The notes: generated by a model not told the origin, from the letters alone. Shown: positions 1-29,368, counted from the first letter of the stretch. The stretch: DNA of 32,000 nucleotides from Geotalea daltonii FRC-32 (GCF_000022265.1 NC_011979.1:720001-752000), one strand, 5' to 3'. Program-made: numbers and translations.

Positions 1-735
1 GTCCATTTTGGTCATGTCCCATTTGCGGTCGAATACCTTGCGGTTAACGGCCATGGCTGCATTGAAGTCGATCCTGTTCCCCTCGAAAGTCCGGCTGCCG
101 TGGTGATGGATGAAGACGTCGCCGGCGATGACCGACTGCAGCCCGGCCAGGGAGGCGCGCAGGCAGAAATCGTCGTCCTCGAAGTTGCCCAGGGCAAAGG
201 CTTCATCCAGCATCCCCACCTGGTCCGCCAGGCTGCGGCGGAAGAGCATGCAGAAACCGACCACCAGCTTGACCGGGATGCGCCGGTGACGATGGGCGGA
301 GCGGAAACCGGCGGCGAAGGCTTGCATTTCGTCCATGTTTGCATAGGGGACCGACAGCAGTTGCTGGGGACCGGCTATGTTGTTGGTCATGGGAGCGACG
401 ATGCCGTCGGCGGAGGCTTCGAGACATTCCCGCATCCCGGTAAGCCATCCCTCCGTCACCACCACGTCGTTGTTGAGTAAAAGCAGGTATTCACCCTTGG
501 CGGCAGCCATGCCCTGGTTGCACCCCTTGGCGAAGCCCAGGTTCTTCTTGTTCTCGATAAGCCTGTAGTTTTTGTGGCTTTTCATTTCCTGGCGAAGCCA
601 TTTGACCGTGCCATCCTTGGAACCATTGTCGACGAAGATTATCTCGTGTTTTTCCGGCGTATGTTTCTGGATGCTTGACAGGCACTCACGGGTGTATTCC
701 AGCTGATTCAAGGTGAGGATGATGATGGAGGTTAA
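1..735 (-). other. Domain of the giant ORF: GT2 glycosyltransferase, copy C (truncated by the window edge)
   Basis: TSIIILTLNQLEYTRECLSSIQKHTPEKHEIIFVDNGSKDGTVKWL ... GEYLLLLNNDVVVTEGWL ... GFCMLFRRSL ... GNFEDDDFCLRA ... FIHHHGSRTF. Confidence 0.85.
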
Positions 736-3700
736 GTGATCCTCCTTGGCGGCCACCTTTGCCTGTGCCGTTTTTTTCTCTTTCGCCGGCGGGAAGGATA
801 CCGGTTTCGCCTGCCGGGCCTGTTGAGGCACGGCCCGCAGCAGGTACTGGAAATGCCTTCCTTCATCGGCCAGGGTGGAAACATCCAGCCCCGCCTCGGC
901 AAGGGCTTTGGGGATCTGGGGGGGGACCTGCACATCGTTGAGCACCGTTGCGCTCATGGTGGTAGGCGTAAAGCCTGCATTGCCGAAGAGTTCCATCACC
1001 CCCTGACGGGTAAAGAAGCGGAGATGGGTGCGGTCGAGGATGCCTTCATCGGCATAGTCCCATTTCCCTTCCAGGAGCCCCCTCACCACCGACCAGTGGC
1101 GGACGTTGGGGATACTGGCGACGATCTCACCCCCTGCTGCCAGTTTGCCTTTGGCGGCGACGAGAACGGCGGTGGGATCAACGAGGTGTTCCAACACATC
1201 GGCGAAAATGATGGTATCGAAATACCCATCGGGAAGGGTGGGTAAAATCTCCTCCACCGGTCCCGCGCAGACCTTGTCCAGCTTCTGTTCCGCCAGTTTC
1301 GCCGCCGCCGGCAGCATTTCGATTCCCCATACCTCCGCTTTCAGCTTTGCTTTCAGTTCGCCAGCCGTAGCGCCTGCGGCGCAGCCCACGTCAAGGATTC
1401 TCTTCGCCGCCGGATTCACCATTTCCTGCACTTCCGGTCGCGCAAAGCCATAGTAGGCAGCCGGCTTCTCCCCCATCCTGGCCAGGATCTCCTCACTGTC
1501 GGTATACATGCTGTATAGGTCCGAGCCGAACTTGTCCTTGAAGAGGTGATATTTTTCCACCAGGTGATCGGGATGGTCCCGCTCCTCGTCATAGCCCAGG
1601 TGGTAGGCGATGAACTCCCGGGCATAGCCCACCTTGCCGCCGTTTCTGCGCACCTGCTCGCACGCCTCCCAGTCGGTGGTGTATTTCCCGTCAAAGTATT
1701 TCCTTTTGATGCACTGCATCCAGGTGCCCACGTTGGCCAGGGTGATCTTGTCATTGTAAACGGTCTTCTCGCCGAGGATGACATCGGGCAGACTGGCCGG
1801 TTTGTTGACCGGATCGAGGGTCAGGCCGATGAGCCCCATCTCCGGGTACTCCCGGTGCAGGTCGAGCATCCGTTCCAGCCAGCATTTGCCCTGCAGGTCG
1901 GGGACGAGGATGTCCGGGTCGCTGACCACATACGGATCGGAGTTGGCCAGCTCGATGCCCCGCTGGAAGGCGACGGTGAAATAGTTGTCGTCGTTGAAAA
2001 CCAGGTGGTCGTAGAGGATGGCGGTCTTTTGCAGATAGCCCTGGAAGTCTTCCCGGCTGTGGTTGTCGACGACGATGATGCGGTAAGGATAGCGGGTGCG
2101 CTCGATGAGGGTCTTGATGGTCTGTTCGAAGTAGTCCCGGCGGTTGTAGGTGAGAAAGATGATGTCGATGGGCTGCTTTTCAGAGTTATTCAGCACCTGC
2201 TGCTTTTTCTCGTAAAGGGCGAGGATCTCCGCTGGAAGGTCGGAGGGTGCAGATGCTGTGCTACTCTCGATGGGCTCCGCTGCTGAAGCTGCAGGTGTCG
2301 CCTCCTGCCTGGCGAAATTTTGCAGCGCCTGCAGGCTCTGCCTGATCTCGGCGTTCCAGGGTTCCACCTCCAGCGCCCTCGTAAAGAAACAGGCGGCGTC
2401 ATCGAGCCGGTCCAGTGACAGGCACAGATTGCCCAGTGCTGTCAGTACCTCCAGGTCTTTCGGTTTTACGGCCAGGAGCTTGACGTATATCTGCAGCGCT
2501 TCTTCGGTCCTGCCGAGCACGATATGATAGAAGTCGGCCAGGTTCTTCTGGAAGACGGCATTGGTGGGCTCAAGGCGTGTTGCCTCTTCCTGGTGTTCCA
2601 GTGCCTTTTCCATCGCCCCCTGGTTTGTATAGAGGACCCCCAGGTCATTATGGGCAGTGGCGAAATTGGGGTGACGGCAGAGCAGCTTCTCAAGGGCGGC
2701 AATTTTCTGTTCGACCTGGTCCTCAGGCAGCGCCTGGATTTCTGCGTAGGCCGATTCAGCCACACCCATGTCGGCCTGAGCTGTTTCCCGGTACTCCTTC
2801 ACCGCTGCCAGCGATTCCCGGACCTCCCTGTTCCATGGTTCGATTTCCATGGCACGGGTGAAAAAGCATTCCCCATCATCGAGTTTTCCAATGGCAACAC
2901 AGAGGTTTCCCAGTGCCATCAGTACTTCAAGATCCTTTGGCTGCACCGCCAGAAGCTTCACGTAAATCTGCAGCGCCTGTTCCGTCCTCCCCATCACCAT
3001 GTGATAGAAATCGGCCAGATTTTTCAAGAAGGTACCATTGCCTGGTTCCAGGCGGGCAGCTTCTTCATGATGGGCAACCGCCTGGTCCTGCTGTCCCTGC
3101 TGCCCGTAGAGGACACCCAGATCGTTGTGGGCCAGGGCGAACTGGGGGAAATGTTGCAGCAGGTTCTCCAGGGCGGCTATGGCTTCGGCTGTCAGATTCC
3201 GGCCGGCCAGATCCACGGCTTTGCCGTACATTTCCTCGACAGTCGCTGCCGGCCCAATCTGTTCCGGTTGCCGTCGGAATTCTTCGAGGGCCTCCAGGCT
3301 CTTCCGGATTTCCAGGTTCCATGGCTCGATTTCCAAGGCGCGGGTGAAAAAGTGGCGGGCATCGTCATGCTTGCCTACGCTGACGCAAATTTTGCCCAGT
3401 CCGGCAAGAACTTCCAGATCTTTCGGGTGCATTGCCAGGAGTTTGACGTAAATCTGCAGAGCATCTTCAGTTCGACCGAGCACCACCTGGTAAAAATCGG
3501 CCAGGTTCTTCTGGAAGGTGGCATTGGTGGGTTCCAACTGCGTTGCCTGCTCAAAATGGGCAAGTGCTTTTTCAGTCTCGCCAAGGTTGCTGTAGAGCAC
3601 TCCCAGGTCGTTGTGGGCAAGGACGAATTTGGGATGGTGCCGGAGCAGGTGCTCCAATCGGTTCTGTGCTTCTGCAACATTCCCTTCGTTGGCAAGAGAA

Positions 3701-7032: not shown

Positions 7033-7045
7033 GGTCCTTTACATC

Positions 7046-8422
7046 TCAATGCAGCCTGAGGTCGGTGTCCTTATCGGAGAGTAACCGATCGATGTTTCTT
7101 TCGCCGTCTGAAGTTAGGTCTTTCAGCAGAATCCCCAATTCCCGCACCAGCAGCTCGCAGGTTTCGTTTCCGCTTGCAATAATCCGCTGGTTCTTTTTTG
7201 CATAGGTAAAGGAATAGCCCCAGGGTTCCTTTTTCAGGAGGGGCACCAGGCTCTGTTCCAGGTGCGCATTAACAATTGAATAGGGGCGGTTGCCGAAAAA
7301 GGCCACCGTGGCCGGGCCGGAAGAAATTCCCATGAAAGCGGCACATTCCTTTATTAGCGCCAGATCCTGATCTACGGTCGTTCTGCTGTTTTTTGCGATC
7401 ACCACGTTTTCATGTGCCCGAAGTTGCTCGTCCACTTCGCTTGCAGCGCAAATGACAAAGAATTTAACCGGCAGGTGGCTGTGGCAGTGGCTGAAGAATT
7501 CAGACCATGCCTCGATGTTGCTGTTCCTGCTGAGGTTGTAGCTTTTGGTCTTGCGCATTTGGACTGCAACTGGAATATATCCCCGTGCATTTTCTTCGAT
7601 AAAGTTCCTGGCCCACCTGGCAAGCGACCCCCTTATCCTGAATTCCGGCAACATTTTTTGTTGCTCGTAAAACATGTTCAATAGCCGGAAGGTGGGCAGA
7701 TTCAGATCGAGCATACTCTTCAGAAGGGGGACTGTGGGCCAGGCAACCGCGTCTGGGGCAGCCATGGATTGAAGAGCGGTATCTTCATCATGTTCCAGGG
7801 TCAGTGCCGGTGCTTCGTTACAGAGAAGAAAGACTGGTAGCAGTCTGATGATGTGATCGAGGTAATTTTCCCCGTTAACCCCAAGGGCGCGGAACGACGG
7901 CCGGGCAGGGTTTTCTCTGTCAGAAAGCAGGTACGTTCTGGCTTGGGTAATGCCATGGGCAAGGCAAATACAATTGGCTGCCTGTTGCAGCAGAATCAGG
8001 TCGCCAATGGAATAGGGCTGCGATCTGAAATCCCAGGTAACCACCAGTTTTGAGGTATCAGCGGAGCCCCTGACCGTTTGCTGCAACATATGGTCGATGA
8101 ACAGCTCGACCAGCCGGTTGTAGGTAGACTCATCCTCGGTCTTCAGTTTTTCTCCGGTTCGTATAAATTCAGCAATCCCGCAGTATGTGCCGGCATCCAC
8201 ATCGTCAAAGGATAGCACCTTGAGGTAAGCGGCCGCAGCTTCCTTAATACTGCCGATTAAGTGGTAGGCATGTCCAAGGCGGGCATAGGCATCCATCTGA
8301 TGGGGCGCCATGCCGATGATGCGAATGTAGAATTCTACTGCTTCCTCAACCAAGCCCTTGTTGAGCAGGAGGTCTGCCTGACGCAGCATGGGAAGCATGC
8401 TTGTAATTTCACTTTCTGCCAT
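7046..8422 (-). CDS. TPR-containing protein with a C-terminal domain of unknown function (possibly GT-B-like)
   Basis: Track ORF is 7046-8455. I prefer the internal ATG at 8422 (MAESEITS), which has AAGGA upstream and only a 14-nt overlap with the preceding gene. The N terminus has TPR-like helices (EEAVEFYIRIIGMAPHQMDAYARLGHAYHLIGSIKEAAAAY). The C-terminal FMGISSGPATVAFFGNRPYSIV resembles the nucleotide-sugar-binding loop of GT9-type enzymes, but only weakly. Confidence 0.6.
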   Translation of the reverse strand: MAESEITSMLPMLRQADLLLNKGLVEEAVEFYIRIIGMAPHQMDAYARLGHAYHLIGSIKEAAAAYLKVLSFDDVDAGTYCGIAEFIRTGEKLKTEDESTYNRLVELFIDHMLQQTVRGSADTSKLVVTWDFRSQPYSIGDLILLQQAANCICLAHGITQARTYLLSDRENPARPSFRALGVNGENYLDHIIRLLPVFLLCNEAPALTLEHDEDTALQSMAAPDAVAWPTVPLLKSMLDLNLPTFRLLNMFYEQQKMLPEFRIRGSLARWARNFIEENARGYIPVAVQMRKTKSYNLSRNSNIEAWSEFFSHCHSHLPVKFFVICAASEVDEQLRAHENVVIAKNSRTTVDQDLALIKECAAFMGISSGPATVAFFGNRPYSIVNAHLEQSLVPLLKKEPWGYSFTYAKKNQRIIASGNETCELLVRELGILLKDLTSDGERNIDRLLSDKDTDLRLH

Positions 8423-9524
8423 GGTGTCGATAATCCTTTTCCTCGGGCACCGCATACCAGACGGTATCCCAGAAGGTTGGGGAGTAGTGGCCGAGATAGT
8501 AGTGGTAGCCGTGGAGCATTGAATTCAGAAGAAGCGGAACCTGGAACAGGTGCTGCTTCTTGTGGTAGATGCACACCGCCAGTTGTGGACGGTGCCGCTT
8601 GAGCGTAGCAATGGCGCCCTGAAGGACTTCCGCTTCTGCCCCCTCCACATCGAGTTTGATCAGGTCCACCCTTTCCAGTGCCTGCTCTGTCGTAAATTCA
8701 TCGATGGAGATAGCCGGCACCTGCTGCACTTCGTCCTGCTCTGCCATGTCGGTCACAATCCGCGCGCCTGGGGGATTGTCCCGGTTGGAAAAAAAAGGCA
8801 GGAATGTCCGACTGCTCCAGAGGGCCATGGGGTAAAGGCTGATCTGAGAAGAACTTAAGGGCGAAGGGGTGGCGAGATTCGGGTCGAACCCATGCACGGT
8901 GCCGCCGGGACACAAGCAACGGGCGAATTCCCGGGTATCGGCGCCGTCAAAAACTCCCCCTTCGATGATGGTTTGAAGATCGCCGCTGTTGATGAACTCC
9001 AGGTACTCCCGCCCCATGCTGGAACGGTGGGCGTGAAAATAATCATGCAACCTTTGTTGGTATTCCGGTTGTCTAGTCCGGCTGGTCACCACCAGGTTGT
9101 ACAGGGCCTTCTGTTGAGCATCAGAGAGCAGTGCCGATGTCTGAGCAATCTGCCGGGCCCAGAGTTTCAACTCGCTGTCATCAAAAATAAGGTGCTCGAA
9201 GAGGAGGTCGGGTGCTGCCACCACGAATTCCGTACAGCCGGCTGTTTTGAGCTTTTGGCAGATATCGATCCAGTAGACCGAGGTGACGAGGATGAGGTCA
9301 CAGGAGAGACGATCGATTTCTTCCAGGGTGACCAACGGTATGGTAAGGGTCAAATTTTTTCGGGCATCATCAATCAGGGCGATGACGACTACATCGGGAC
9401 GAGTAGACTGCAGTTTTTGCAGGAGATGCAGGCATCCCTCCCCTACGCCATAGAGGCAGAGCCGCGCACCGGCGGGGATATCTTTCAGTGAGTTGAGAAA
9501 CGAGGGCATTGTTTTCCCAGTCAT
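8409..9524 (-). CDS. FkbM-family SAM-dependent methyltransferase with an N-terminal Rossmann-like extension
   Basis: IIEGGVFDGADTREFA ... HGFDPN ... VDLIKLDVEGAEAEVLQGA...RHRPQLAVCIYH is the FkbM/Methyltransf_21 signature. An ATGA overlap at 9521-9524 links it to the upstream gene. Confidence 0.8.
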   Translation of the reverse strand: MTGKTMPSFLNSLKDIPAGARLCLYGVGEGCLHLLQKLQSTRPDVVVIALIDDARKNLTLTIPLVTLEEIDRLSCDLILVTSVYWIDICQKLKTAGCTEFVVAAPDLLFEHLIFDDSELKLWARQIAQTSALLSDAQQKALYNLVVTSRTRQPEYQQRLHDYFHAHRSSMGREYLEFINSGDLQTIIEGGVFDGADTREFARCLCPGGTVHGFDPNLATPSPLSSSQISLYPMALWSSRTFLPFFSNRDNPPGARIVTDMAEQDEVQQVPAISIDEFTTEQALERVDLIKLDVEGAEAEVLQGAIATLKRHRPQLAVCIYHKKQHLFQVPLLLNSMLHGYHYYLGHYSPTFWDTVWYAVPEEKDYRHHGRK

Positions 9525-11690: not shown

Positions 11691-11726
11691 AAGGGCTCCA
11701 GTTCAAATACGGGGAAGGAAATGAGC

Positions 11727-11912
11727 TCATTGCATGGTGTAAACGAAGGGGTTGCGCTCTTCCCGGTCCGGGCACTGATCTTCCTTTGTCCCTATGAAGT
11801 AGGGCAGGCAAATCATAATGGTGACGGCGGATATGATCCGCTTGTCCCTGATTGCTCCCGTAAGCACCTGCAGCCAGTAGTGGAAAGAAAAATTAGAAAC
11901 TCGATAGGGCAT
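11727..11912 (-). CDS. Candidate small ORF (61 aa) immediately upstream of the SPASM radical SAM gene
   Basis: ATG at 11912 sits 7 nt after GAGG (catGAGGttttgccATG). It is on the same strand as the operon and fills most of the only sizeable intergenic gap (11691-11934). The protein has two Cys and a hydrophobic core (ISAVTIMICLPYFIG). I recognise no homology. Confidence 0.35.
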   Translation of the reverse strand: MPYRVSNFSFHYWLQVLTGAIRDKRIISAVTIMICLPYFIGTKEDQCPDREERNPFVYTMQ

Positions 11913-11934
11913 GGCAAAACCTCATGGCGGCAGT

Positions 11935-15087: not shown

Positions 15088-15122
15088 GCCCTACCTCTAC
15101 AGTGGGTGGTTTCGTTTCGTCT

Positions 15123-16580: not shown

Positions 16581-16992
16581 AATCAAGTTGTTCCTGAGCT
16601 ATCAGTTCACGTGCCGCTTGAAGTGCCCGCCGGTCATGTTCGGCCATGAGCAGGTCTTCCGTTTCCCCCGGTCCGAACCATCCCCAATTTTGCCCTTCAC
16701 AGAGTTGCAGGGCATTTTTGTCCCCCCGGTAGTGTTCCATGAACAGATACAGCCGGCATTGGAGTCCTTGTACGGAAAAGGGTTGTTCCAAAACGAATCG
16801 AGGGGCGGTTAGACGGTAGCAGAGTTCTTCCTCCGTTTCGCGGATTACCGTTGCAATTGGTGATTCATGCTCCTCACAACCGCCGCCGAAAAAAGCCCAG
16901 TATCCGGGAAAGAAGGGGGCGTCATCCGTTCGGTGCTGCAGCAGGACTTTCTGTTGCCGGTCGTAGAGGAGAATGACAGCTACCCGGTGCAT
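16570..16992 (-). CDS. NUDIX hydrolase
   Basis: The Nudix box is GGGCEEHESPIATVIRETEEELC (G-x5-E-x7-REUxEExGU). Confidence 0.85.
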   Translation of the reverse strand: MHRVAVILLYDRQQKVLLQHRTDDAPFFPGYWAFFGGGCEEHESPIATVIRETEEELCYRLTAPRFVLEQPFSVQGLQCRLYLFMEHYRGDKNALQLCEGQNWGWFGPGETEDLLMAEHDRRALQAARELIAQEQLDYDH

Positions 16993-16995
16993 GGG

Positions 16996-17652
16996 CTAGC
17001 GCACCCCGACGCAAAGACAGATCAGGTAATGAGCCATTTTGCTGAAGCCGGTATGCACTACCTCATCATTCATGCTGAAGAGGAAGACATTCTTGAAGTA
17101 CTTTTCCAGGGTCGCTTTCAGATCGTTGCCGCTTTTGCAGTTAACGTGGGTGGCTCGGCTCGGCTTGGAGGCGTATTCCTGACTTTCCAGGCTGGGGATG
17201 CCGACGATGCAGACGCCATCAGCCGTGATCGAGGCGGCGACGTTTTTCAGGAATGCATCCTCGTCCTCCTTTTCCAGGTGTTCCAGTACGTCCAGCAGAT
17301 AGACCGCATCCCGCGCCGGCGAAACCGGCCCCTTGCGCAAGTCGTGGAGGGCGAAGGTTATACGCTCATTGGTTCGCATCTCCTCGCATTCTTTGATCAG
17401 TACCGGGTCCATGTCGACACAATGGATGGAGCCCACTTCCCGGGCTACGATGTTGGTGCCCCAGCCATCACCGCAACCCACCTCCAGCAGGTCTTTCTTA
17501 CCGGCAAGCATTTTGGCGATGAACTTGTAACGGGCCATGGAGAAAAGCAGCACCTTGGGGTCCATGCGCCAGCGATGACTGGACATCATGCCCAGGCGTA
17601 TCCGCTCCTCGTCCTTATATTCAATGTGTTCGCTGATATATTTGTCTTCCAT
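16996..17652 (-). CDS. Class I SAM-dependent methyltransferase
   Basis: DLLEVGCGDGWGTNIVA (motif I) ... VDMD ... AVYLLDVLEHLEKED. Confidence 0.8.
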   Translation of the reverse strand: MEDKYISEHIEYKDEERIRLGMMSSHRWRMDPKVLLFSMARYKFIAKMLAGKKDLLEVGCGDGWGTNIVAREVGSIHCVDMDPVLIKECEEMRTNERITFALHDLRKGPVSPARDAVYLLDVLEHLEKEDEDAFLKNVAASITADGVCIVGIPSLESQEYASKPSRATHVNCKSGNDLKATLEKYFKNVFLFSMNDEVVHTGFSKMAHYLICLCVGVR

Positions 17653-17661
17653 GCTCCGCTC

Positions 17662-18753
17662 CTAAATGAAGTTGATGTGCTGCGGCGGGTTTTTCAGTGT
17701 ATAGAGAAATTCGTTGATAGCGTTGGTCTTGCAGCTGGCGTAGCATTCCTCATGGACCTTGATCTCCGTCTCGATCCGCTTCATGGTCTGCCAGTAGGCG
17801 TCACTCTCGATGATGGCCTTGAATGACTGTCTGGTCAGGTCACCGAGGCAGAATTCCGGTTCCCGGTAGGAGAAGAACATGCCGCAAGGGTAGAGCTTGC
17901 CGTCGCCGCTGGAGTAGAGGAGAAAAGGGGCGCCGAGGCAGCGGTTATAGCTGCGCTTTCCTTTCCGGTTGATGTTGCCCCACTTTATCACCACTTTGAA
18001 GGTGTCGGTGGAATGTTCCTCTGCCTGCAGGAGGATGTCCCGGAACTGATCGTACTGGTCCAGTTTGTTGAAGATGCCCAAGTCATTTTGCACAGTGTCG
18101 CCGCAGTGTTTGATTTCCAGGTAATCTACCCCCAGTTCCTTTGCCAGTGAGGTAAGCGGCATAACCTCGTCAATGTCCTGCGGAGTGAGCACCATTTGAA
18201 AACCGATGGTAACGGCGGAGTTGAGCGCTTTTTTCCTTGCAATGCAGAAACGTATCTTTTCCACCAACAGGTCAAAGTCCGGGCTGTTGTGCAGACGCTG
18301 GTATGAGCCGGCTGATGCTGCGCTGATATTGAAGCGCAGCCAGGTCAGGTGTTCCAGCGCCTCCTCTCCTTGGCGGCTCGTATCGAATAAGACGCCGTTG
18401 GTTCCCAGGGCCATGTCGACCCCCGCCCGCTTTCCCGCAACGATTGCCTCATAAACATGGGGGTTGAGCAACGGCTCCGCCTCCCCGATCATGGCCATGG
18501 ATCTGACACCCATTTCACCTGCCTCGCTAACGTAGCGGAGTAGTGGCTCCCTGGGGAAAAAGACTTCCTTCCCTTGCTCATAACGGTTGCCCTGAACGAC
18601 GCCGAAGCAATAGTGGCACTTGATGTTGCATCCCTTGCTCAACCCAACGTCGATGTGCAGCGGTGGAATCCTCTTGCCGCTCATCCAGTCGTTCACTCTG
18701 TCCAGATGCCAATAAAGCTTGTGTCCATCCATGCGATAGGTGGTATCAGCCAT
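17662..18753 (-). CDS. Radical SAM protein, paralog A of a three-member set
   Basis: GCNIKCHYCFG contains the CxxxCxxC motif. It shares the N-terminal GHKLYWHLDRVN and the C-terminal NAINEFLY...HINFI with 24022-25089. Confidence 0.85.
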   Translation of the reverse strand: MADTTYRMDGHKLYWHLDRVNDWMSGKRIPPLHIDVGLSKGCNIKCHYCFGVVQGNRYEQGKEVFFPREPLLRYVSEAGEMGVRSMAMIGEAEPLLNPHVYEAIVAGKRAGVDMALGTNGVLFDTSRQGEEALEHLTWLRFNISAASAGSYQRLHNSPDFDLLVEKIRFCIARKKALNSAVTIGFQMVLTPQDIDEVMPLTSLAKELGVDYLEIKHCGDTVQNDLGIFNKLDQYDQFRDILLQAEEHSTDTFKVVIKWGNINRKGKRSYNRCLGAPFLLYSSGDGKLYPCGMFFSYREPEFCLGDLTRQSFKAIIESDAYWQTMKRIETEIKVHEECYASCKTNAINEFLYTLKNPPQHINFI

Positions 18754-19621
18754 GTATCCTTCCTTTTTCCGGCTGTAATTCGGTGCAATAGGCGCGCAGT
18801 GCCTCCCGCCAGGGACGGAGCGGCGGTACCTTCTCCGACCGCAGTGGGGTATGGCGGTTTTTCAGCCCCAGAGAGGGAAAAACCTCATGGGAAACCGGCT
18901 TCACCGCCGCTTTCAGCCCCATGATCCTATCCAGTTCCTGGATCAGCTCCCAGAGCGATGCCTCCCCCTCGTTGACCAGATGATAAAGGCCGAAAGGACG
19001 CTTTTCCTCAACCAGCCCCCTGATTGCCGTCGCCACGTCTTGGCTGTAGCTGGGTGAGGCGACAATGTCATTGGAGATGCGGAGCGGCTCCGTGCTCCGC
19101 TGCATCCGCTCCAGCATCTTTTCTACGAACTGGGGGCTGCCTGTGGTGATGCCGAATTGCACCGAGATGCGCGCGATGTAATAACGGTGGGCAATGGCGG
19201 TGATGAAGCAGTCAGCCCCGTACTTGGTGAAACCATATAGGTTAATGGGGCTGGCGGCGCTGGATTCGGCATAGGTTTCCCGGCCGGTGCCGCTGAAAAC
19301 CGCATCACTGCTGATGTGAACCAGCAGAAAACCCTGACTTGCCGAAAGCTCGGCCAGCAGCCGGGGAAAGAGGGTGTTAACAAGCAAGGCTTGGTGCGGA
19401 TCCTTTTCGCAGGCATCAACGCCGTTGAAGGCGGCGGCATTTATTACCAGCTCCGGTTTGATTTGCTGCAGCCGGCGTCTTACCTGGTCGTGATCACGTA
19501 CGTCACAAGTGGCCCGTGTAATGGGAACCAAAGTGTATCGCCCCTTTGCGAATGCGGTTGACAGGGCCGACCCCACCTTTCCGGAACTGCCGAAGATGGC
19601 TATGGTACGAATCTCGGTCAT
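18746..19621 (-). CDS. RmlD-like NAD(P)-dependent sugar reductase (dTDP-4-dehydrorhamnose reductase family, SDR)
   Basis: IAIFGSSGKVGSAL is a glycine-rich NAD(P) loop, YGFTKYGAD is YxxxK, and the length is about 290 aa. The exact substrate is unknown. Confidence 0.75.
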   Translation of the reverse strand: MTEIRTIAIFGSSGKVGSALSTAFAKGRYTLVPITRATCDVRDHDQVRRRLQQIKPELVINAAAFNGVDACEKDPHQALLVNTLFPRLLAELSASQGFLLVHISSDAVFSGTGRETYAESSAASPINLYGFTKYGADCFITAIAHRYYIARISVQFGITTGSPQFVEKMLERMQRSTEPLRISNDIVASPSYSQDVATAIRGLVEEKRPFGLYHLVNEGEASLWELIQELDRIMGLKAAVKPVSHEVFPSLGLKNRHTPLRSEKVPPLRPWREALRAYCTELQPEKGRIHG

Positions 19622-20691
19622 TAGACGAAATCCTGGTGGTTTTTGTCCACGTCCAGGTATTCCAGGACCATGCGGTTATTGCTGTCGACCACACAGTGGT
19701 GGTTGCAGTCACGGCTCGGGTCGATGCGGAAGAAGCGTGACTTGTCGCTGGACCAGAAGTCTCTAAAGCAGGTTTTGGCTATGGAACCGAGCAATCCCTG
19801 CTGAAGATTATAGGCCTTGTCGTGGCACGAATAGACGTTGAGGTCGGCGCCGATGACCGGCACGATCTGTAGATATGGGCACCAGTGGTATTCCTTGTTG
19901 AAGGTGCCCAGCTGGTAGTGGTAGGCGTCGTAAAGCTCGAAGTCGTCCTTGACCAGTTCCTGGCGGGCCCGCTGGGTCTGCTCCTTGACCGCATGGAACA
20001 GGGGCTGATGATATTTATGGTTGTCGTCGCAGTTGTTGCTGACGATGCAGGGTGAAACTTTGACGCTGTTTACCCCTGTTTCGCGGAGCAGCTTGATCAG
20101 GTCGTAAATATGGTGATAATTCCTGTTGTCGACGACGATGCAGACTCCCAGATAGCAGGGTCCGCCTATTTTTTTGAAGGCCTCGATGTTGGCGATGATC
20201 CTGGTGAACTCCCCGTCGGCGCAGCCCCGGTATTCCCGGTAGCTGGCATCATCCCAGCCATCCATGGAGACACGCAGCCAGGTGGCATGACGGGCAAAAA
20301 CCTCTGCGACTTCCCCGGTGAGTCGCGAACCATTGGTCAGGGCGGCAAACTTGATCGGGCTTTCTGCCAGTTTGCGGGCAGCCTCCAGAAGGTGCGAATA
20401 GCAGAACGGATCGCCGCCGCCGCTGAAGGTGACCGCTTTAACCCCCATTGCTATCAGGTCGTCGATTATTTCCAGCATTTTCTCCCTGGGGATGGAATCC
20501 TGTAGGTTCATATCCTGGCCCAACTGGAGGTTTTCAGCGCGGTAGGCGCAGTACCAGCAGTTGTGGTTGCAGGCATTGGTCGGCTTGATGCGCACGTTCA
20601 CAGGGGGGAGGATATTTTCCGAGGAGGCGGGCAACGAGGCGAGCTTCTCCGGGAAGTGAAAGATTTTCATTCTGGTATAAAGTAAGCCCAT
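19621..20691 (-). CDS. Radical SAM protein, paralog B
   Basis: PTNACNHNCWYCAY contains the CxxxCxxC motif. Length and layout match paralogs A and C, and the C terminus is ...VLEYLDVDKNHQDFV. Its stop shares one nucleotide with the next start (TAATG at 19623-19619). Confidence 0.8.
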   Translation of the reverse strand: MGLLYTRMKIFHFPEKLASLPASSENILPPVNVRIKPTNACNHNCWYCAYRAENLQLGQDMNLQDSIPREKMLEIIDDLIAMGVKAVTFSGGGDPFCYSHLLEAARKLAESPIKFAALTNGSRLTGEVAEVFARHATWLRVSMDGWDDASYREYRGCADGEFTRIIANIEAFKKIGGPCYLGVCIVVDNRNYHHIYDLIKLLRETGVNSVKVSPCIVSNNCDDNHKYHQPLFHAVKEQTQRARQELVKDDFELYDAYHYQLGTFNKEYHWCPYLQIVPVIGADLNVYSCHDKAYNLQQGLLGSIAKTCFRDFWSSDKSRFFRIDPSRDCNHHCVVDSNNRMVLEYLDVDKNHQDFV

Positions 20692-20700
20692 TTACGCACC

Positions 20701-21363
20701 TTATTCGAAAAATACGAACTCGTAATCGCCGCTGTAGCCGAATTCGTTAAAGAGCCAGACCCATTCCCCCGGGGTGAAGAAGGCGGCGCAGGTCAAGGCC
20801 CAGCACTGCAGGTTGAAGAGCTCTTCTTCCGTGCGGTATCCCTCCACCACCATGTATTTGCTTTTGGCGACCCGTTCCATTTCGCCCAGTGCCTTCTTCA
20901 GGTCGGGCAGGTGCAGGTTGTGCAGCGTGGTAAGGGAGATGGCCAGGTCGAACTCCTTGTCGTCGAAGGGTAGGGGGTCCTGGGCGCGGTGGAGGAACAG
21001 GCTGGTACGGATTTCTTCCTTGGCATTGGCGATGGCATATGCGGAAATGTCGAGACCGGCGATACGTGCCTTCGGCAGCAGCTGTCGCAGTTCATAGAGC
21101 AGGAAACCTTTGCCGCAGCCGATGTCCAGAATGGAGGCGTCGGCGGCCAGGTGGTAATCGCGGACAAGTTTTTCCGCCACAGGCTTCCAGCGGCCGTCGT
21201 ATTTGAACCCGCCATAGCCGTAACGCCGCTCTCCATCCCAGAAATCGGCGCCGAATTTTCGTGCCACCTTCATGCACGCCACCTTGTCGTCGCACATGCG
21301 GGACAGGTAGTCCCTTTTGGTGCTGGTGTGGAGCGGCGTGAAATAATCTCTCAAGATTCCCAT
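20701..21363 (-). CDS. Class I SAM-dependent methyltransferase
   Basis: ASILDIGCGKGFLLYEL (motif I), AGLDIS, FDLAISLTTLHNL. Confidence 0.8.
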   Translation of the reverse strand: MGILRDYFTPLHTSTKRDYLSRMCDDKVACMKVARKFGADFWDGERRYGYGGFKYDGRWKPVAEKLVRDYHLAADASILDIGCGKGFLLYELRQLLPKARIAGLDISAYAIANAKEEIRTSLFLHRAQDPLPFDDKEFDLAISLTTLHNLHLPDLKKALGEMERVAKSKYMVVEGYRTEEELFNLQCWALTCAAFFTPGEWVWLFNEFGYSGDYEFVFFE

Positions 21364-21371
21364 ATCTCTCC

Positions 21372-22283
21372 TCAGAGCAATTGCTTCACTTTTGCGGCGA
21401 TGGAGACGGCGTCAATGCCGAAAAGCCTGCGCATGCCGGCAGTGTCGTGGATCTCGTGGATAAAGCGGGAAGGCACGCCCAGGGTGGTCAGGGAGCAGGT
21501 CAGGCCGCTCTCCCTGAGAAATTCACCCATGGCGGCCCCGAAACCGCAGGAGCGGTAATGTTCTTCGACGGTGAGCACCGCCCCGATTCCCTGCAGTGCC
21601 TCGGCGAGGGCCTGACGGTTCAAGGGCTGCACCATGGGCACGGAGAGGACACGGGGGCGGATGCCGGCGTCGTGGAGGATCTGCACGGCCCTCATGGCCT
21701 CTTCGCCGATGGAGCCGTGGCAGAGGAGGGCGACGGCCTCTCCTTCGGCCAGCACCTGAGGCTTGGTGATGTCCAGATCCTGCTGCCGGTGAATATCAGG
21801 CTCACCACGCTTGGCAAGGCGCACATAGACGGGTGCCCGGGCCGACAGGGCATATTTCGCGGCAAGCCGGGCCTCCACCGGGTCGATGGGGGAAAAAACC
21901 TCCAGGTTGGGCATGGTGCGGGCCAGGGCCAGATCCTCGATGGAATAGTGGGTCATGCCCTGGGGGGCGTAGGTGACCCCGCTGCCGATGCCTGCCAGAA
22001 TCACCGGCAGGTCCTGGTAACAGATGTCGTTGCGCACCTGCTCGTAGCAGCGGTAGAGGACGAAGGGGATGATGTTGTAGAGCACCACTTTATAGCCGGT
22101 TATGGCGAGCCCGGCGGCGAAGCCGATCATGTTCTGCTCTGCTGCCCCCAGGTTTAGGAAGCGGTCGGGGTGCCGGTCCTTGAATGTATCGAAAACACCC
22201 AGCCCGGCGTCGCCGCTGATGATGAAGATGTCGTCTCGTCCGGCACAAGCGTCCAGGATGGTGTTGATGAAGGCGTTTCTCAT
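21372..22283 (-). CDS. Transketolase-family protein, C-terminal (pyrimidine-binding plus C-terminal) subunit
   Basis: FLNLGAAEQNMIGFAAGLAITGYKV ... ILAGIGSGVTYAPQGMTHYSIEDLALARTMPNLEVFSPIDPVE. An ATGA overlap links it to the N-terminal subunit gene. Confidence 0.85.
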   Translation of the reverse strand: MRNAFINTILDACAGRDDIFIISGDAGLGVFDTFKDRHPDRFLNLGAAEQNMIGFAAGLAITGYKVVLYNIIPFVLYRCYEQVRNDICYQDLPVILAGIGSGVTYAPQGMTHYSIEDLALARTMPNLEVFSPIDPVEARLAAKYALSARAPVYVRLAKRGEPDIHRQQDLDITKPQVLAEGEAVALLCHGSIGEEAMRAVQILHDAGIRPRVLSVPMVQPLNRQALAEALQGIGAVLTVEEHYRSCGFGAAMGEFLRESGLTCSLTTLGVPSRFIHEIHDTAGMRRLFGIDAVSIAAKVKQLL

Positions 22284-23062
22284 GCCAGTTCCTTTAATGC
22301 TGCGGCTTTGTGCTCGTCGGTAACCACGTAGTAGTGCCAGATGAGCTGGTCCTCCATGAAGGAAACCCCCTTGCCCTTCGTCGTCCGGGCGATGACCACC
22401 TTCGGCTTGCCGTGGGCGTCCTCATCGAGGGCCGACGTGAGTTCCCGGTGGTCGTGGCCGTCCACTTCCAGCGCATGCCAGCCGAACGCCTCCCATTTTT
22501 CCTTCATTGGCTCGAAGGCGCAGATTTCCGTGGGGCGGCCATACCCCTGAAGGTTGTTATGGTCGATGATGGCGGTAAAGTTGCCGAGGCCAAGCTTCGG
22601 CGCGAAGAGCGCCCCTTCCCAGATGGAGCCTTCCTGGGTTTCGCCGTCGCCGATCAGGGCATAGACCTTGCGCCCGTTGCCCTGCTTATTGAAGCCGTAG
22701 GCAATTCCCATCCCCATGTTGAACCCGTGCCCCAGGGAACCTGCCGAGACTTCGATCCCCTTCTCGGGGGAGCGGTCCAGGTGGGCCGGCAGGGTGCCGT
22801 TATCTCGGTAGTAACCTTCAATATCCTGATCGCTGAGGATGCCGAAGGTATGGAGAGCAGAATAAAGGGCCATGGCAGCGTGTCCCTTGCTGAGGATGAA
22901 GATGTCCCGCTCGGGCCACGGGTCGAGACGCAAGGTCCGGCAATAGAGGGTGGCCAGGATGTCCGCACAGGAGAGACAGGAACCCACATGGGGGCTCTTG
23001 GATCGGTTGGCCATTTCGATGATGGTCCGTCTAATTTGCGATGCGGTAGCAGGTGTTTTCAT
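22280..23062 (-). CDS. Transketolase-family protein, N-terminal (thiamine-diphosphate-binding) subunit
   Basis: SPHVGSCLSCADILATLY ... ILSKGHAAMALYS ... GSLGHGFNMGMGIA ... VYALIGDGETQEGSIWEGA is the TPP motif GDG-x(25-30)-N. The start overlaps the end of the GT9 gene by 32 nt. Confidence 0.85.
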   Translation of the reverse strand: MKTPATASQIRRTIIEMANRSKSPHVGSCLSCADILATLYCRTLRLDPWPERDIFILSKGHAAMALYSALHTFGILSDQDIEGYYRDNGTLPAHLDRSPEKGIEVSAGSLGHGFNMGMGIAYGFNKQGNGRKVYALIGDGETQEGSIWEGALFAPKLGLGNFTAIIDHNNLQGYGRPTEICAFEPMKEKWEAFGWHALEVDGHDHRELTSALDEDAHGKPKVVIARTTKGKGVSFMEDQLIWHYYVVTDEHKAAALKELA

Positions 23063-24011
23063 GGGCTAAGGGGGCTCCTAATATTTCGGCGGCAGCTGCC
23101 GCTATATTTCTGGTCTGGAAATGGGCCATGCACTCTTTGCCGCTTCGGCATCGAACGTCGAAGCAGGGCATGGCGGAACACCGACAGGATGAGCGGAGCA
23201 GCTTACCTCCCGTGTAGAAATAGACCTCGCTGGGATCGGTGGGGCCGAAAAGGCCGATGACCTTCTTGTGGAAGCCGAAGGCCAGGTGCATCCCCAGGCT
23301 GTCGTTGGAGATGATCAGCCGGCAGGAATTGATCCAGTTCATGTATTCGAAGAGGTTCTTGCGTCCCTCCTGCCAGGAGACGGTGTATCCATGGCGGACC
23401 AGGAGCTTTTCCAGTTGCTGCCATTTTGCCATGGGCATGCCCTTGACAGGCCACTTTGCCCCCACCTCGAAGTTGAGGCCCACATCGAAGGTTTCCTCCG
23501 TGTTCGGAACATAACCGATGACGTACTCCTGTCCTTTCCATTGGACGCCAAGCATTTCGATCAGCACTTGCTGCCAGAATCTCTTGTCATTTCCCGAATG
23601 CTTGCCCTCGATGTAGCTGATGAAGTCGAGCCCCTTTTCATAGGCATGGTAGCTGCCGCTGATGGTCTCGAAACGGAAGCCGTACTTGACCCAGGCGTCG
23701 ATCATGTCGGTAAGGGCGCAGACGCCGGGTATTTTTTCCAGGTTGATCAGCACGTCGAACTTTTCCTTCATCAACTGGAAGGGAACGAAATTGTCCCAGA
23801 TGAGGAGCCGGTCGATGTAGGGATTGCGGTAGAGAAGCGGTTCGGCGTGTTCCGAGACGAGCCAGGTAATCTGGGAATCCGGGTATCTCTCTTTCAGTGC
23901 CGAGAGGATCGGTGTGGTCCGCAGGACGTCCCCCAGGCTTGGGACCTTGCCGATCTCCGGGTCCAGGGTTTCCGAATAGCCGAGCTTGATGACGAGTATC
24001 TTAGTGCACAT
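23031..24011 (-). CDS. Glycosyltransferase family 9 (heptosyltransferase-like)
   Basis: ILVIKLGYSETLDPEIGKVPSLGDVLRTTPILSALKERYPDSQITWLV ... LIISNDSLGMHLAFGFHKKVIGLFGPTDP is the GT9 signature. It carries an unusual Cys-rich C-terminal tail, SSCRCSAMPCFDVRCRSGKEC. Confidence 0.8.
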   Translation of the reverse strand: MCTKILVIKLGYSETLDPEIGKVPSLGDVLRTTPILSALKERYPDSQITWLVSEHAEPLLYRNPYIDRLLIWDNFVPFQLMKEKFDVLINLEKIPGVCALTDMIDAWVKYGFRFETISGSYHAYEKGLDFISYIEGKHSGNDKRFWQQVLIEMLGVQWKGQEYVIGYVPNTEETFDVGLNFEVGAKWPVKGMPMAKWQQLEKLLVRHGYTVSWQEGRKNLFEYMNWINSCRLIISNDSLGMHLAFGFHKKVIGLFGPTDPSEVYFYTGGKLLRSSCRCSAMPCFDVRCRSGKECMAHFQTRNIAAAAAEILGAPLAHENTCYRIAN

Positions 24012-24021
24012 GGCGCCTCTG

Positions 24022-25089
24022 TCAGATGAAGTTCACATGCTCTACGGACGGGTACCTGATGTCGTAGAGGAAGTCGTTGATTGCATTGGGACGGCAGTTG
24101 GGGGGGCAGGTAGCCACATCCAGCCGCTGCTCCAGGTGCTCCTTTATCCGTTGCCGTTTTTTCCCCTGCCAGATCTCCCGGAATGGCCGCTCGTAGATGG
24201 AGCCGAAGACGTATTCCTTACGGTCCCAGTAGGGGAGGCAGGAAGCGATTTCGCCGGCCGAATTGACGACTGAGATGAATGAGGTGCCGAAACAACGGCG
24301 ATAGCGGCGCTGACCATATCCGGAGAAACTATCTCTCCTGGCGATGACACGGAAATTATCCGTTGACAGGGCTTCCGCCGCTGTCAGACTGTCTTCCAAA
24401 AGAGCAGCCTCAATCTGCTGCTGCATCTGGTATCCCTGTCGGCTGCTCTGCTGGACAAAGGGCTTGATGGCCAGGTAATCGGCTCCGGCATCCTTGATGA
24501 TCGCGGCTGCTTCCTTGAGAGAGGCCAGGTTTTCCGGGAGGAGGACGAATTGGGCGCCGATAGTGGTGGCGAGAGAATTCGATTTTTTGATTGCCGCCGC
24601 ATGCTTTAAAGCCTCGACCACGGTGGCAAAAACCTCGGGTTTTACCTGGTGGATGCGGGCATAGGTCTCAGGGGTCCCGCCGTTGAAGCTGAACCTGACA
24701 AAGGTGAGATGGGGAAGGATTTCCTCCGCCAGTTGCGGTGTCAGCAGTTGTCCATTGGTGAAGAGTCCCACGTCTATGCCGTTGCTCCTGGCGCGCCGGA
24801 TCATGGCGCCACAGTCGGGATGGAGGAGCGGCTCACCTTCCCCGGCGAAGAGCAGACTTTTGAGACCTGCTTCGGCAAGTTCGTCGATGAAGGTCAAGGT
24901 CCGACCGGTTTCAAGCCTGCGGTTGGGGTAGCCGATGAAGTCATAGGCGCAGAAGATGCAGCGGTGGTTGCAACTGCCCACCGGGCTGATCTCCATATAG
25001 ATGGGAAAACAGTCTCCGGTGGTCAGGTACTGGTTGACCCGGTCCAGGTGATAGGCCAGTTTATGTCCCTCGAAGTTATAGTTCCTCAT
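24022..25089 (-). CDS. Radical SAM protein, paralog C
   Basis: VGSCNHRCIFCAY contains the CxxxCxxC motif. The N-terminal GHKLAYHLDRVN and the C-terminal NAINDFLY...HVNFI match paralog A. An ATGA overlap links it to the upstream gene. Confidence 0.85.
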   Translation of the reverse strand: MRNYNFEGHKLAYHLDRVNQYLTTGDCFPIYMEISPVGSCNHRCIFCAYDFIGYPNRRLETGRTLTFIDELAEAGLKSLLFAGEGEPLLHPDCGAMIRRARSNGIDVGLFTNGQLLTPQLAEEILPHLTFVRFSFNGGTPETYARIHQVKPEVFATVVEALKHAAAIKKSNSLATTIGAQFVLLPENLASLKEAAAIIKDAGADYLAIKPFVQQSSRQGYQMQQQIEAALLEDSLTAAEALSTDNFRVIARRDSFSGYGQRRYRRCFGTSFISVVNSAGEIASCLPYWDRKEYVFGSIYERPFREIWQGKKRQRIKEHLEQRLDVATCPPNCRPNAINDFLYDIRYPSVEHVNFI

Positions 25090-26036
25090 GGAGTCGGGTG
25101 CCTTTCCGTTGGGACCGAAAAATTGTCTTGGATATTGCGGATGTTAACGCTGGTGTGGCCGAAGACCTGAAAGCGATTGGTTTTGACCTTAACGTCGCAG
25201 GGGTTGCAGTCGCCGTAATAGCGGCAAGGCCGGTACTCTTCGATGGTTTCCTGGGAAAAACCGGCATCGAGTATGTGGGCGATGGGTGACCTGTCTTTGT
25301 ACAGGTCGGAATGGCATTTGTAGACGTGGCCTGCGGGATCGACCAGTATTTCGCTGGTTCTGCACTCGCAATGCTTTGTTTTTTCGCCATCCACGCAGTC
25401 CGGGAATTTGAAGGTGCCGTAAAGTTTCCCCTTATAGTTGCCGAGAAATTCCTTTGTCCGGAAATCCAGTTCCAGCTTGCGGCACTTCTCCTGTATCTCA
25501 AGGATGTGCTTCCTGATCTCCGGGTCGGGGTGCTCGATCCCATAGAGCCCGACCCGGAAGCCGGCATCCTGCATCTTCAGGGTCTTGCGGATCAAGTCAT
25601 CGATGTCGTTCTGGCCCGGATGGTAACTGACCCGAATGGCGGCATAGGGGGCATTTCTTGTAAAACGTTCGACCGGTACTTTTTTTATGAACGCATCCAC
25701 GTCGAACATCATGTTGGTCATGAGGTCCATTTTGATTTCTTCATTGGCCTCGTTGACTAACCGATAAAACCCCTGGTGAAGGGTGGGCTCGCCCCCTTGC
25801 AGGGTGAGTGGCAGATCGTTTCGCAGCACCAGTCGATTTGCTGCAGTGATCCAGTCTTCGGCCGAGAGCATCCGCTTTGCCCGTTGGTCCGACCGTTTGG
25901 CGTTTTGATGGAGGTTAAGGCAGTAGTCGCAATGAAGGTTGCAGGCAAGAGTGAGGAAAAAGGCCACATAATTATGATGCTCCTTGGGTGTTATGGGAGG
26001 CAACTCATCAGCAAAAGCTGTAGCGGATTTCGTCAT
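25086..26036 (-). CDS. Radical SAM protein (distinct type with a Cys-rich C terminus); first gene after the sigma-54 promoter
   Basis: LTLACNLHCDYCLN contains the CxxxCxxC motif. The C-terminal cysteines are CECRTSEILVDPAGHVYKCH ... PCRYYGDCNPCD. The track start at 26042 is a TTG, so I use the ATG at 26036 (MTKSATAF), which has AAGGA 10 nt upstream. Confidence 0.8.
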   Translation of the reverse strand: MTKSATAFADELPPITPKEHHNYVAFFLTLACNLHCDYCLNLHQNAKRSDQRAKRMLSAEDWITAANRLVLRNDLPLTLQGGEPTLHQGFYRLVNEANEEIKMDLMTNMMFDVDAFIKKVPVERFTRNAPYAAIRVSYHPGQNDIDDLIRKTLKMQDAGFRVGLYGIEHPDPEIRKHILEIQEKCRKLELDFRTKEFLGNYKGKLYGTFKFPDCVDGEKTKHCECRTSEILVDPAGHVYKCHSDLYKDRSPIAHILDAGFSQETIEEYRPCRYYGDCNPCDVKVKTNRFQVFGHTSVNIRNIQDNFSVPTERHPTP

Positions 26037-26073
26037 GTACAATTGATCCTTTACCTATAGTCTGAGGATAAAA

Positions 26074-26089
26074 AGCAACTGTCGTGCCA
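26074..26089 (-). promoter_or_regulatory. Sigma-54 (RpoN) -24/-12 promoter
   Basis: The minus strand reads cTGGCACGacagTTGCTt, an exact match to TGGCAC-N5-TTGC(A/T). The GC of the -12 element lies about 35 nt upstream of the ATG at 26036. A perfect 10-bp palindrome, TCAAATTTGA (26184-26193), lies about 100 bp upstream, at a plausible distance for an enhancer-binding protein. Confidence 0.7.
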
Positions 26090-29320: not shown

Positions 29321-29368
29321 GATGGCGAATTTTTTTACTGATAACCTGAGCGCCCCCCGAGAGGACTT

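Follow-up and report, generated by a model that had tools for sequence, protein, structure and literature searches.

The window analysed here is a stretch of 32,000 nucleotides (nt) from Geotalea daltonii FRC-32 (NC_011979.1:720001-752000), which spans the locus tags Geob_0651 to Geob_0673, as established by exact protein look-up of eight of its proteins. It covers the greater part of a tightly packed run, roughly 29 kb long, of about 20 sugar-building genes, numbered g1 to g19 in the direction of transcription (Table 1), which is headed by a conserved sigma-54-type promoter element and runs into a giant multi-enzyme gene at the left edge. We regard the window as probably the right-hand part of a sigma-54-driven flagellin glycosylation island of G. 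daltonii.

Organization of the locus

According to a six-frame stop map and a survey of open reading frames (ORFs), the genes from 26036 down to base 1 form an unbroken run on the minus strand only. This had been stated in the first-pass annotation, which was made from the sequence of the window without database searches, and both the stop-free frames and the ORF coordinates agree with it. The gene junctions listed there (ATGA overlaps, a 1-nt overlap, a direct abutment and short gaps) were all found to be exact. Calculated with the start codons used in that annotation, and with a 61-amino-acid ORF counted as a gene, the inter-gene distances from g1 onward are -4, 10, -32, -4, 8, 9, -1, -8, 9, 3, -11, 35, 0, 22, 36, -11, -4, -14 and 13 nt, the last one leading to g19. 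The 19 junctions thus comprise nine overlaps, one abutment and nine gaps of 3-36 nt, and 17 of them overlap or are separated by 22 nt or less. The single larger gap (11691-11934), which had also been recognized as containing a small ORF, measures 244 nt and holds the 61-amino-acid ORF just mentioned.

At the left end of the window, minus frame -2 is free of stop codons over positions 1-7038 (2,346 codons). The plus-strand ORFs of up to 443 amino acids found in 1-7000 were therefore rejected as genes, since they are antisense shadows of the giant gene; the ORF listing skips ORFs running off the window edge, and so hides the giant gene in this region.

At the right end, the head of the block had been placed at 26089. 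The co-directional packing stands; the position of the start does not, because the genes for a TPR protein and an O-methyltransferase, further upstream, are also on the minus strand, so that the co-directional block starts at 28212. The gene msrB (Geob_0673) diverges on the plus strand from 28405, which puts the boundary of the island at about 28.3 kb. The right flank (28405-31604, plus strand) is ordinary, with msrB, a DUF3108 protein, a proline-rich protein with hydrophobic segments at its N- and C-terminal ends and no Pfam family, and a YdcZ-type membrane protein.

Neither Rfam families nor tRNAs were detected in the window. For the sequence to its left, a genome scan retrieved only sister species (81-85% identity), and a metagenome scan only distant relatives.

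Table 1. Features of the window in the order in which the minus-strand run is read.
Feature	Position	Strand	Basis and remarks
Upstream O-methyltransferase (Methyltransf_3)	27517..28212	minus	Pfam; right end of minus-strand block
Sigma-28 (FliA)-like element TCAAG-N15-GACGATAA	27434..27461	minus	36 nt before Geob_0671 ATG
Upstream TPR gene (Geob_0671)	26222..27397	minus	Pfam
Conserved upstream box TTCAATTATTTGAC	26139..26152	minus	50 nt upstream of -24 element
Sigma-54 (-24/-12) promoter element TGGCACGACAGTTGCT	26074..26089	minus	Consensus match and conservation
Short leader with Shine-Dalgarno AAGGA (26049-26045)	26037..26073	minus	Before ATG at 26036
g1 (Geob_0670, ACM19035), radical SAM, C-terminal Cys-rich auxiliary-cluster region	25086..26036	minus	Pfam Radical_SAM; cassette signature gene
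g2, radical SAM/SPASM	24022..25089	minus	Pfam; ATGA overlap with g1
g3, GT9 (heptosyltransferase-family) glycosyltransferase	23031..24011	minus	Pfam Glyco_transf_9 (1e-13); PDB 3tov, 1psw
g4, split transketolase, thiamine-diphosphate-binding half	22280..23062	minus	Pfam Transketolase_N (1.5e-35)
g5, split transketolase, pyrimidine-binding and C-terminal half	21372..22283	minus	Transket_pyr, Transketolase_C; ATGA overlap with g4
g6, class I SAM methyltransferase	20701..21363	minus	Pfam
g7, radical SAM	19621..20691	minus	Pfam
g8 (Geob_0663), RmlD-like NDP-hexose 4-ketoreductase	18746..19621	minus	Pfam RmlD_sub_bind (2e-58); 1-nt overlap with g7
g9, radical SAM/SPASM	17662..18753	minus	Pfam
g10, class I SAM methyltransferase	16996..17652	minus	Pfam
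g11, NUDIX hydrolase	16570..16992	minus	Pfam
g12, B12-binding radical SAM, probable C-methyltransferase	15123..16580	minus	Pfam B12-binding and Radical_SAM; last cassette gene
g13 (Geob_0658), NodU/CmcH-type O-carbamoyltransferase	13324..15087	minus	Pfam Carbam_trans_N, Carbam_trans_C
g14 (Geob_0657)	11935..13323	minus	No Pfam family; UniRef name SGNH/GDSL hydrolase family protein
Sole long spacer, 244 nt	11691..11934	minus	Holds 61-amino-acid ORF Geob_0656 (11912-11727)
g15 (Geob_0655), radical SAM/SPASM	10509..11690	minus	Pfam
g16 (Geob_0654)	9521..10519	minus	No family match
g17, FkbM-family methyltransferase	8409..9524	minus	Pfam Methyltransf_21; TIGR01444 above cut-off
g18, TPR protein, weakly TIGR04372-like glycosyltransferase C-terminal region	7046..8422	minus	24 bits vs cut-off 45
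g19 (Geob_0651 by count), giant multi-enzyme, first 2,343 codons	1..7032	minus	Stop-free frame and Pfam
g19, GT4 domain	5722-6168		
g19, GT2 domain	4966-5544		
g19, methyltransferase domain	3946-4308		
g19, TPR domain	2365-3720		
g19, GT2 domain	1846-2169		
g19, methyltransferase domain	970-1449		
g19, GT2 domain	91-738		

The promoter region

The element TGGCACGACAGTTGCT matches the sigma-54 consensus TGGCACG-N4-TTGCW with no mismatches (12 of 12 specified bases), with GG at -24, GC at -12 and the canonical spacing. It is on the same strand as g1, and ends 38 nt before the ATG of this gene. Nothing else in the window comes within two mismatches of the consensus: the 35 further matches have three each, and the total number of matches is below the expectation from shuffled sequences. 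By our own arithmetic, about 0.008 exact matches would be expected in 64 kb, the two strands being counted.

The region between the TPR gene and the gene that follows it was aligned for four orthologous loci (alignment A2), namely the window, Geotalea sp. SG265 and two run-assembly contigs, in which g1 shares 94% and 78% identity with that of the window. The core TGGCA..ACAGTTGC is invariant in all four regions, against an average identity of 69% in the surrounding columns; the SG265 version of the promoter is TGGCATTACAGTTGCA. The motif GTAAAGGAT of the leader is kept in contig L050. In addition, TGGCACGACAGTTGCT fits the RpoN (sigma-54) consensus of Geobacter sulfurreducens, which is TTGGCACGGTTTTTGCT; flagellar operons rank high among the predicted RpoN targets of that bacterium, which cannot live without rpoN (PMC2725144). 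The likeness to the G. sulfurreducens regulon lies in the promoter consensus; the species is a different one, the study mentions no glycosylation operon (PMC2725144), and RpoN dependence in G. daltonii is predicted. The perfect match, the core invariant in four regions and the fit to the RpoN consensus all bear out the consensus sigma-54 promoter that had been proposed at the head of the run, and the promoter looks genuine and conserved.

The TTCAATnnTTTGAC part of the conserved upstream box is likewise invariant in the four aligned regions. The box resembles a site for integration host factor (IHF), with one mismatch to WATCAANNNNTTR, and is overlapped by a match of the form TTGACA-16-GAAAAT at 26143-26116, whose counterpart in L050 is TTGACG-16-GATAAT. 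It could be an IHF-like site or, because of this overlapping match, the -35 hexamer of a tandem sigma-70-type promoter. No recognizable site for an activator (enhancer-binding protein) was found upstream of the sigma-54 element.

The TPR gene Geob_0671 has orthologs in SG265 (89% identical) and in Citrifermentans bremense (44% identical). The sigma-28-like element ahead of it has its equivalent at the same relative place before the C. bremense ortholog, where the sigma-28 consensus is perfect (TAAAGTTT...GCCGATAA, in full TAAAGTTTTCCCCCTGGGATGCCGATAA; contig L044, 5226-5253, plus strand), and this suggests that the stand-alone TPR protein is the product of a late flagellar gene.

Two other sigma-28-like matches were observed. 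One of them, TAAAGTTTCCCCTTATAGTTGCCGAGAA (25420-25447, plus strand), has one mismatch to the consensus and, from its antisense position within g1, is oriented toward the sigma-54 promoter; about 0.04 matches of this type are expected per window, the site is not conserved in the orthologs of g1, and it is probably due to chance, though it might give rise to a regulatory antisense RNA. The other, GAAAC-N15-TCCGATAA (7071-7098, minus strand), is weak (three mismatches, at chance level) and falls in the last codons of g18, where an internal promoter preceding the giant gene could act.

The tailoring cassette, the giant gene and their counterparts in related genomes

Genes g1-g12 form a cassette that is also found in other genomes. 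The model of its signature protein, g1 (pLDDT 79.7), has SuiB, anSME, DesII and BtrN as the nearest folds, all with TM scores of about 0.5; these are generic neighbours of the SPASM/twitch type, and no specific function for g1 emerged from the model and the fold search. In a PDB sequence search, the best solved relatives were DesII (9e-10) and the cytosylglucuronate decarboxylase BlsE for g2, and BlsE (5e-8) for g7, for which the match to DesII was weak. While DesII and BlsE are thus the nearest solved sequence relatives of g2 and g7, and DesII and BtrN appear among the folds close to g1, the differences are large, with 11-15% identity over the Foldseek alignments, TM scores of about 0.5 and no equivalog model reached. 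Because the fold likeness of g1 does not go beyond this TM score and the solved relatives are distant, we infer, rather than show, the chemistry of the cassette. NCBIfam gave no equivalog-level name for any window protein, and only the FkbM match of g17 was above the cut-off; g8 scored 196 bits against TIGR01214 (cut-off 224), and all the matches of g12 were under their cut-offs. Our proposal, which is tentative, is that g1-g12 may encode an undescribed radical S-adenosylmethionine (SAM)-based route to a new kind of sugar, which would be either a higher-carbon sugar or a branched, C-methylated one; in Geotalea, a flagellar sigma-54 promoter would have captured the cassette, so that this sugar is used on flagellin.

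The cassette is portable. There are 1,804 homologs of g1 at E<=1e-20, about 70% identical across phyla that include Desulfuromonadota, Planctomycetota and Nitrospirota. Genes g1-g12 occur in the same order, with 61-88% amino-acid identity and the same overlapping junctions, in a 50.8-kb metagenome contig (L046), and g1-g7 are in the same order in C. bremense and Trichlorobacter lovleyi. In L046, PseB-like, DegT-like, CapE/F/G-like and UDP-GlcNAc 2-epimerase-like genes (3438-10001) directly precede the cassette. This arrangement hints that the substrate of the cassette is a 6-deoxy- or amino-hexosamine nucleotide sugar, which G. daltonii would have to supply from elsewhere in its genome.

Sigma-54-like sites accompany the cassette in part of these genomes. 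In the C. bremense locus, plus-strand matches with up to two mismatches and with GG and GC intact were considered: four of the six are intergenic, though intergenic sequence makes up only about 5.6% of the total (binomial probability about 1e-4, our own estimate), and each of these four sites precedes a glycosylation gene or cassette. A similar element stands at the head of the co-directional run in L046. In L043 and L045, by contrast, the cassette is not preceded by any visible sigma-54-like site, so that not every copy of it is under sigma-54 control; to judge from these sites, such control of glycosylation genes looks like a recurring theme in this group, not a universal one. In T. lovleyi (L045, 2254-5048), the cassette lies downstream of genes for a histidine kinase and a sigma-54-type (NtrC-family) response regulator.

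In contrast to g1-g12, genes g13-g18 were not found in other genomes. The translation of g14, inspected by eye, shows GGS, GFND and DxxH motifs; PDB sequence searches with g14 and g16 gave no meaningful match. The ORF in the spacer between g14 and g15, Geob_0656, is preceded by a GAGG Shine-Dalgarno sequence 7 nt before its ATG, and a search of 1.84 billion representative proteins yielded no true homolog of it; phmmer matches to long proteins were rejected as tandem-repeat artefacts. The predicted RNA fold of the 244-nt gap is no better than that of shuffled sequences (z +1.11). As its ORF has no true homolog, Geob_0656 may not be a real gene, in which case a 244-nt non-coding seam would separate g14 from g15.

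The giant gene continues beyond the left edge of the window. A run-assembly contig (L001), 100% identical to window positions 1-9641, extends the sequence by 1.8 kb and brings the frame to at least 2,935 amino acids. From the alignment with L047, which was reached through a search with a 207-amino-acid methyltransferase and belongs to another species (84% DNA identity), the stop codon is estimated to lie about 232 nt past the end of L001, giving a full length of about 3,011 amino acids. The part left of the window adds a TPR block, a fourth GT2 domain and another TPR block, so that the complete order is GT4, GT2, methyltransferase, TPR (about 450 amino acids), GT2, methyltransferase, GT2, TPR, GT2, TPR. 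Orthologs in the sister genomes are 74-90% identical, and a protein search with the giant gene gave no match above 47% identity. Its length varies, from about 3,011 amino acids here to 4,032 in SG265 (L002, 1145-13243) and 2,852 in G. toluenoxydans (L048, 1442-10000); the rearrangements among these close relatives affect the N-terminal part and spare the C-terminal half, which is conserved.

A known protein of comparable architecture is FlmG of Caulobacter crescentus, a flagellin O-glycosyltransferase for pseudaminic acid in which the TPR domain serves to bind flagellin (PMC7591256). Both are soluble proteins combining TPR repeats with glycosyltransferase domains, and in the sister genomes FlaF and FlbT are encoded beside flagellin. 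However, FlmG has 596 amino acids and one GT-B domain, compared with the approximately 3,000 amino acids, the GT4 domain, the four GT2 domains and the two methyltransferase domains of the giant protein; the two are likened by architecture.

The sister genomes also reveal what follows the giant gene. In SG265, a gene for a 207-amino-acid methyltransferase abuts the stop codon of the giant gene; next comes, in convergent orientation, a flagellin gene whose product has Flagellin_N and Flagellin_C domains. In G. toluenoxydans, the giant gene is followed by the 207-amino-acid methyltransferase, a TPR-methyltransferase and a TPR-GT41 protein, and then, convergently, by a 261-amino-acid gene, FlaF, FlbT, a 225-amino-acid gene, flagellin and a TPR-GT47 gene.

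At the other end, G. toluenoxydans has the same operon head, that is the TPR gene and then a g1 more than 90% identical, and differs in the genes preceding the giant gene, which encode a short-chain dehydrogenase, a sugar C-methyltransferase-like protein and another B12-binding radical SAM protein. In SG265, the same promoter stands directly before the 4,032-amino-acid giant gene, with none of g1-g18 in between; the operon is therefore modular. The cargo thus differs between the two sister genomes: what stays fixed is the promoter at one end and the giant gene at the other, with exchangeable tailoring genes between them. Judged by these gene comparisons, the block is a modular mosaic, not a single indivisible pathway. 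The first-pass annotation had argued strongly from the operon structure that tailoring genes and glycosyltransferases serve one product; this is still plausible, but the argument loses strength when g1-g12 occur elsewhere with other partners and the giant gene stands without them in SG265.

Transcription and proposed function of the island

The run had been described as a unit with a single promoter and no internal terminator-like hairpin. As to terminators, two scans, one consensus-based and one energy-based, detected no intergenic G+C-rich hairpin followed by a T-run (Rho-dependent termination being outside these scans), and spacer folds agree; the matches on the minus strand (14, vs 23 on the plus strand) are imperfect hairpins within coding sequence. 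The single promoter is not secure. The upstream TPR gene shares the strand of the run, and the 185-nt spacer between its stop codon and g1 contains no terminator or stable structure (its fold is no better than that of shuffled sequences, z +1.27). Since a sigma-28-like site (27461-27434) precedes this gene, read-through from it into the operon is possible.

It is quite possible, though not what we would expect, that the run is not one unit expressed from one promoter, and that read-through from the TPR gene and internal starts, in the 11691-11934 spacer or before the giant gene, let the modules be expressed at different stages. The shared strand of the TPR and O-methyltransferase genes, the open spacer up to the sigma-54 element and the sigma-28-like site, perfect in its C. 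bremense counterpart, all fit such an arrangement. So do the invariant TTGAC box (the match at 26143-26116), which could belong to a tandem sigma-70-type promoter, the weak site at 7098-7071 ahead of the giant gene, the spacer whose ORF has no homologs and which may therefore be non-coding, and the separability of the modules in other genomes. Against this arrangement, there is no second sigma-54-like site with fewer than three mismatches, the sigma-70-like matches are fewer than chance (6, vs 12.0 +/- 2.7 from shuffles), the internal sigma-28-like sites, with three mismatches, are at chance level, and 17 of the 19 junctions are overlapping or no longer than 22 nt.

Concerning function, the first-pass annotation had noted that the window encodes no nucleotidyltransferase, 4,6-dehydratase, flippase or exporter, and had concluded that the system is incomplete. 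The absences are real: Pfam and NCBIfam scans found none of these among the window proteins, nor an ABC exporter, an initiating transferase or a polymerase. The conclusion, on the other hand, probably misreads the biology. None of the 20 products has a credible predicted transmembrane helix, and in the sister genomes the cluster runs toward convergent genes for flagellin, FlbT and FlaF. The glycosylation of flagellin takes place in the cytoplasm, following a TPR-glycosyltransferase logic, and the protein is then secreted by the flagellar export apparatus (PMC7591256), which means that no flippase or ABC exporter would be expected. The gene for the acceptor probably lies immediately beyond the left edge of the window. 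In the Geobacter genomes, enzymes that are encoded among the flagellar genes and differ from genome to genome have been suggested as probable flagellin glycosylation enzymes (PMC3543383), and an RpoN-controlled glycosylation-related gene is known in Helicobacter pylori (PMC5368276). We infer flagellin as the acceptor in G. daltonii as well as every chemical step of the following scheme.

Sigma-54 RNA polymerase would bind at 26089-26074, with an enhancer-binding activator that is presumably FgrM (the Geobacter flagellar regulator) or a relative, and would produce one polycistronic message of about 29 kb carrying g1-g18, the giant gene and, by synteny, the 207-amino-acid methyltransferase left of the window. 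The overlapping and abutting stop and start codons would favour coupled translation, and synthesis of the enzymes would belong to the sigma-54 tier of the flagellar hierarchy, ahead of the sigma-28-dependent flagellin. The g1-g12 products would then start from a nucleotide sugar, supplied by genes elsewhere in the genome, and modify it heavily: four radical SAM enzymes, which resemble the nucleotide-sugar-acting DesII, BlsE and BtrN, may act together with a split transketolase that would add or extend a two-carbon unit, and with an RmlD-like reductase, two methyltransferases, a B12 radical SAM C-methylase, a NUDIX hydrolase and the GT9 enzyme. The g13-g18 products may add carbamoyl, methyl and possibly acyl decorations. 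Finally, the giant soluble protein would bind flagellin through its TPR repeats and build the glycan on Ser/Thr in the cytoplasm, and the modified flagellin would exit by the flagellar export apparatus.

Flagellin glycosylation islands are well known, e.g. orfA-N of Pseudomonas aeruginosa PAK, the pse/maf genes of Campylobacter jejuni and Helicobacter and the flm genes of Caulobacter, and their expression is tied to flagellar sigma factors. The island described here has in common with them tailoring genes and soluble glycosyltransferases beside flagellin (here in the sister genomes), a strain-variable content, a presumed cytoplasmic glycosylation with no flippase or oligosaccharyltransferase, and a predicted tie to flagellar sigma factors. 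It differs from them in having no nonulosonic-acid synthase and no Maf, but six radical SAM enzymes, a split transketolase and a GT9 enzyme; in having about 20 genes apparently in one sigma-54 unit; and in a single polypeptide of about 3,000 amino acids that unites five glycosyltransferase domains with two methyltransferase domains and with TPR blocks.

Several observations weigh against the assignment to flagellin. The adjacency to flagellin is taken for G. daltonii from two sister genomes, whose giant genes are 74-90% identical. Among the window proteins there is no NeuB/PseI-type synthase, CMP-sugar synthetase or Maf. GT9 enzymes are classically heptosyltransferases of lipopolysaccharide (LPS), and sigma-54 controls many non-flagellar functions in Geobacter. 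The cassette has no flagellar gene within 10 kb in L043, L045 and L046, and no flagellin gene within 10 kb in L046, C. bremense and T. lovleyi, so that it is not specific for flagellin. Lastly, neither the locus tags nor the combination of radical SAM enzymes with a flagellin glycosylation island could be traced in searches of the literature.

Some of these observations would suit a different target, a cell-envelope glycan (LPS core, O-antigen or capsule), with the GT9 enzyme transferring a modified heptose to the lipid A-core. The family of g3 and the presence of the cassette in non-flagellar neighbourhoods point this way, but we consider it unlikely: the 20 products include no initiating phosphoglycosyltransferase, Wzx/Wzy, Wzm/Wzt, ligase or membrane protein, and TPR-glycosyltransferase fusions, synteny with flagellin, FlbT and FlaF in the sister genomes and flagellar-type promoter elements all speak against it. 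Slightly less likely still is that some other cytoplasmically accessible protein, such as a pilin or another surface protein, is glycosylated instead of, or besides, flagellin. TPR domains are generic protein-binding modules, no acceptor is seen in the window and the cassette is not always near flagellar genes, but both sister-genome operons converge on a flagellin operon, and no other candidate acceptor is encoded nearby. A last reading would make the radical SAM/SPASM proteins maturases of a ribosomally synthesized and post-translationally modified peptide (RiPP), with the 61-amino-acid ORF as the precursor in a natural-product locus. The position of this ORF directly upstream of the SPASM enzyme g15 and the many RiPP maturases in the NCBIfam lists, all of them far under cut-off, point this way, but the reading is very improbable: the ORF is without any homolog, family scans revealed neither a protease or a transporter nor a leader-binding (RRE-type) domain, DesII and BlsE, to which g2 and g7 are closest among solved proteins, are sugar-nucleotide enzymes, and the neighbours are sugar enzymes and glycosyltransferases.

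A flagellin glycosylation island therefore remains the reading that we prefer. Long glycan operons and sigma-54 control of flagellar genes are already known, and the operon and its promoter alone would be unsurprising; the most interesting parts are the radical SAM/transketolase/GT9 cassette and the fusion enzyme of about 3,000 amino acids. The former draws attention to a widespread radical-SAM-rich cassette, with more than 1,800 homologs of its first gene. The latter, if the proposed role is correct, would glycosylate protein in the manner of an assembly line and be unusually large for such an enzyme. As regards the evolution of the island, the fixed sigma-54 promoter and the fixed giant transferase gene appear to flank a slot in which whole tailoring cassettes are swapped between species. 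If our interpretation holds true, the locus would provide a concrete flagellin glycosylation system for the Geobacter-type metal reducers, for which there had previously been only a passing genomic remark (PMC3543383).

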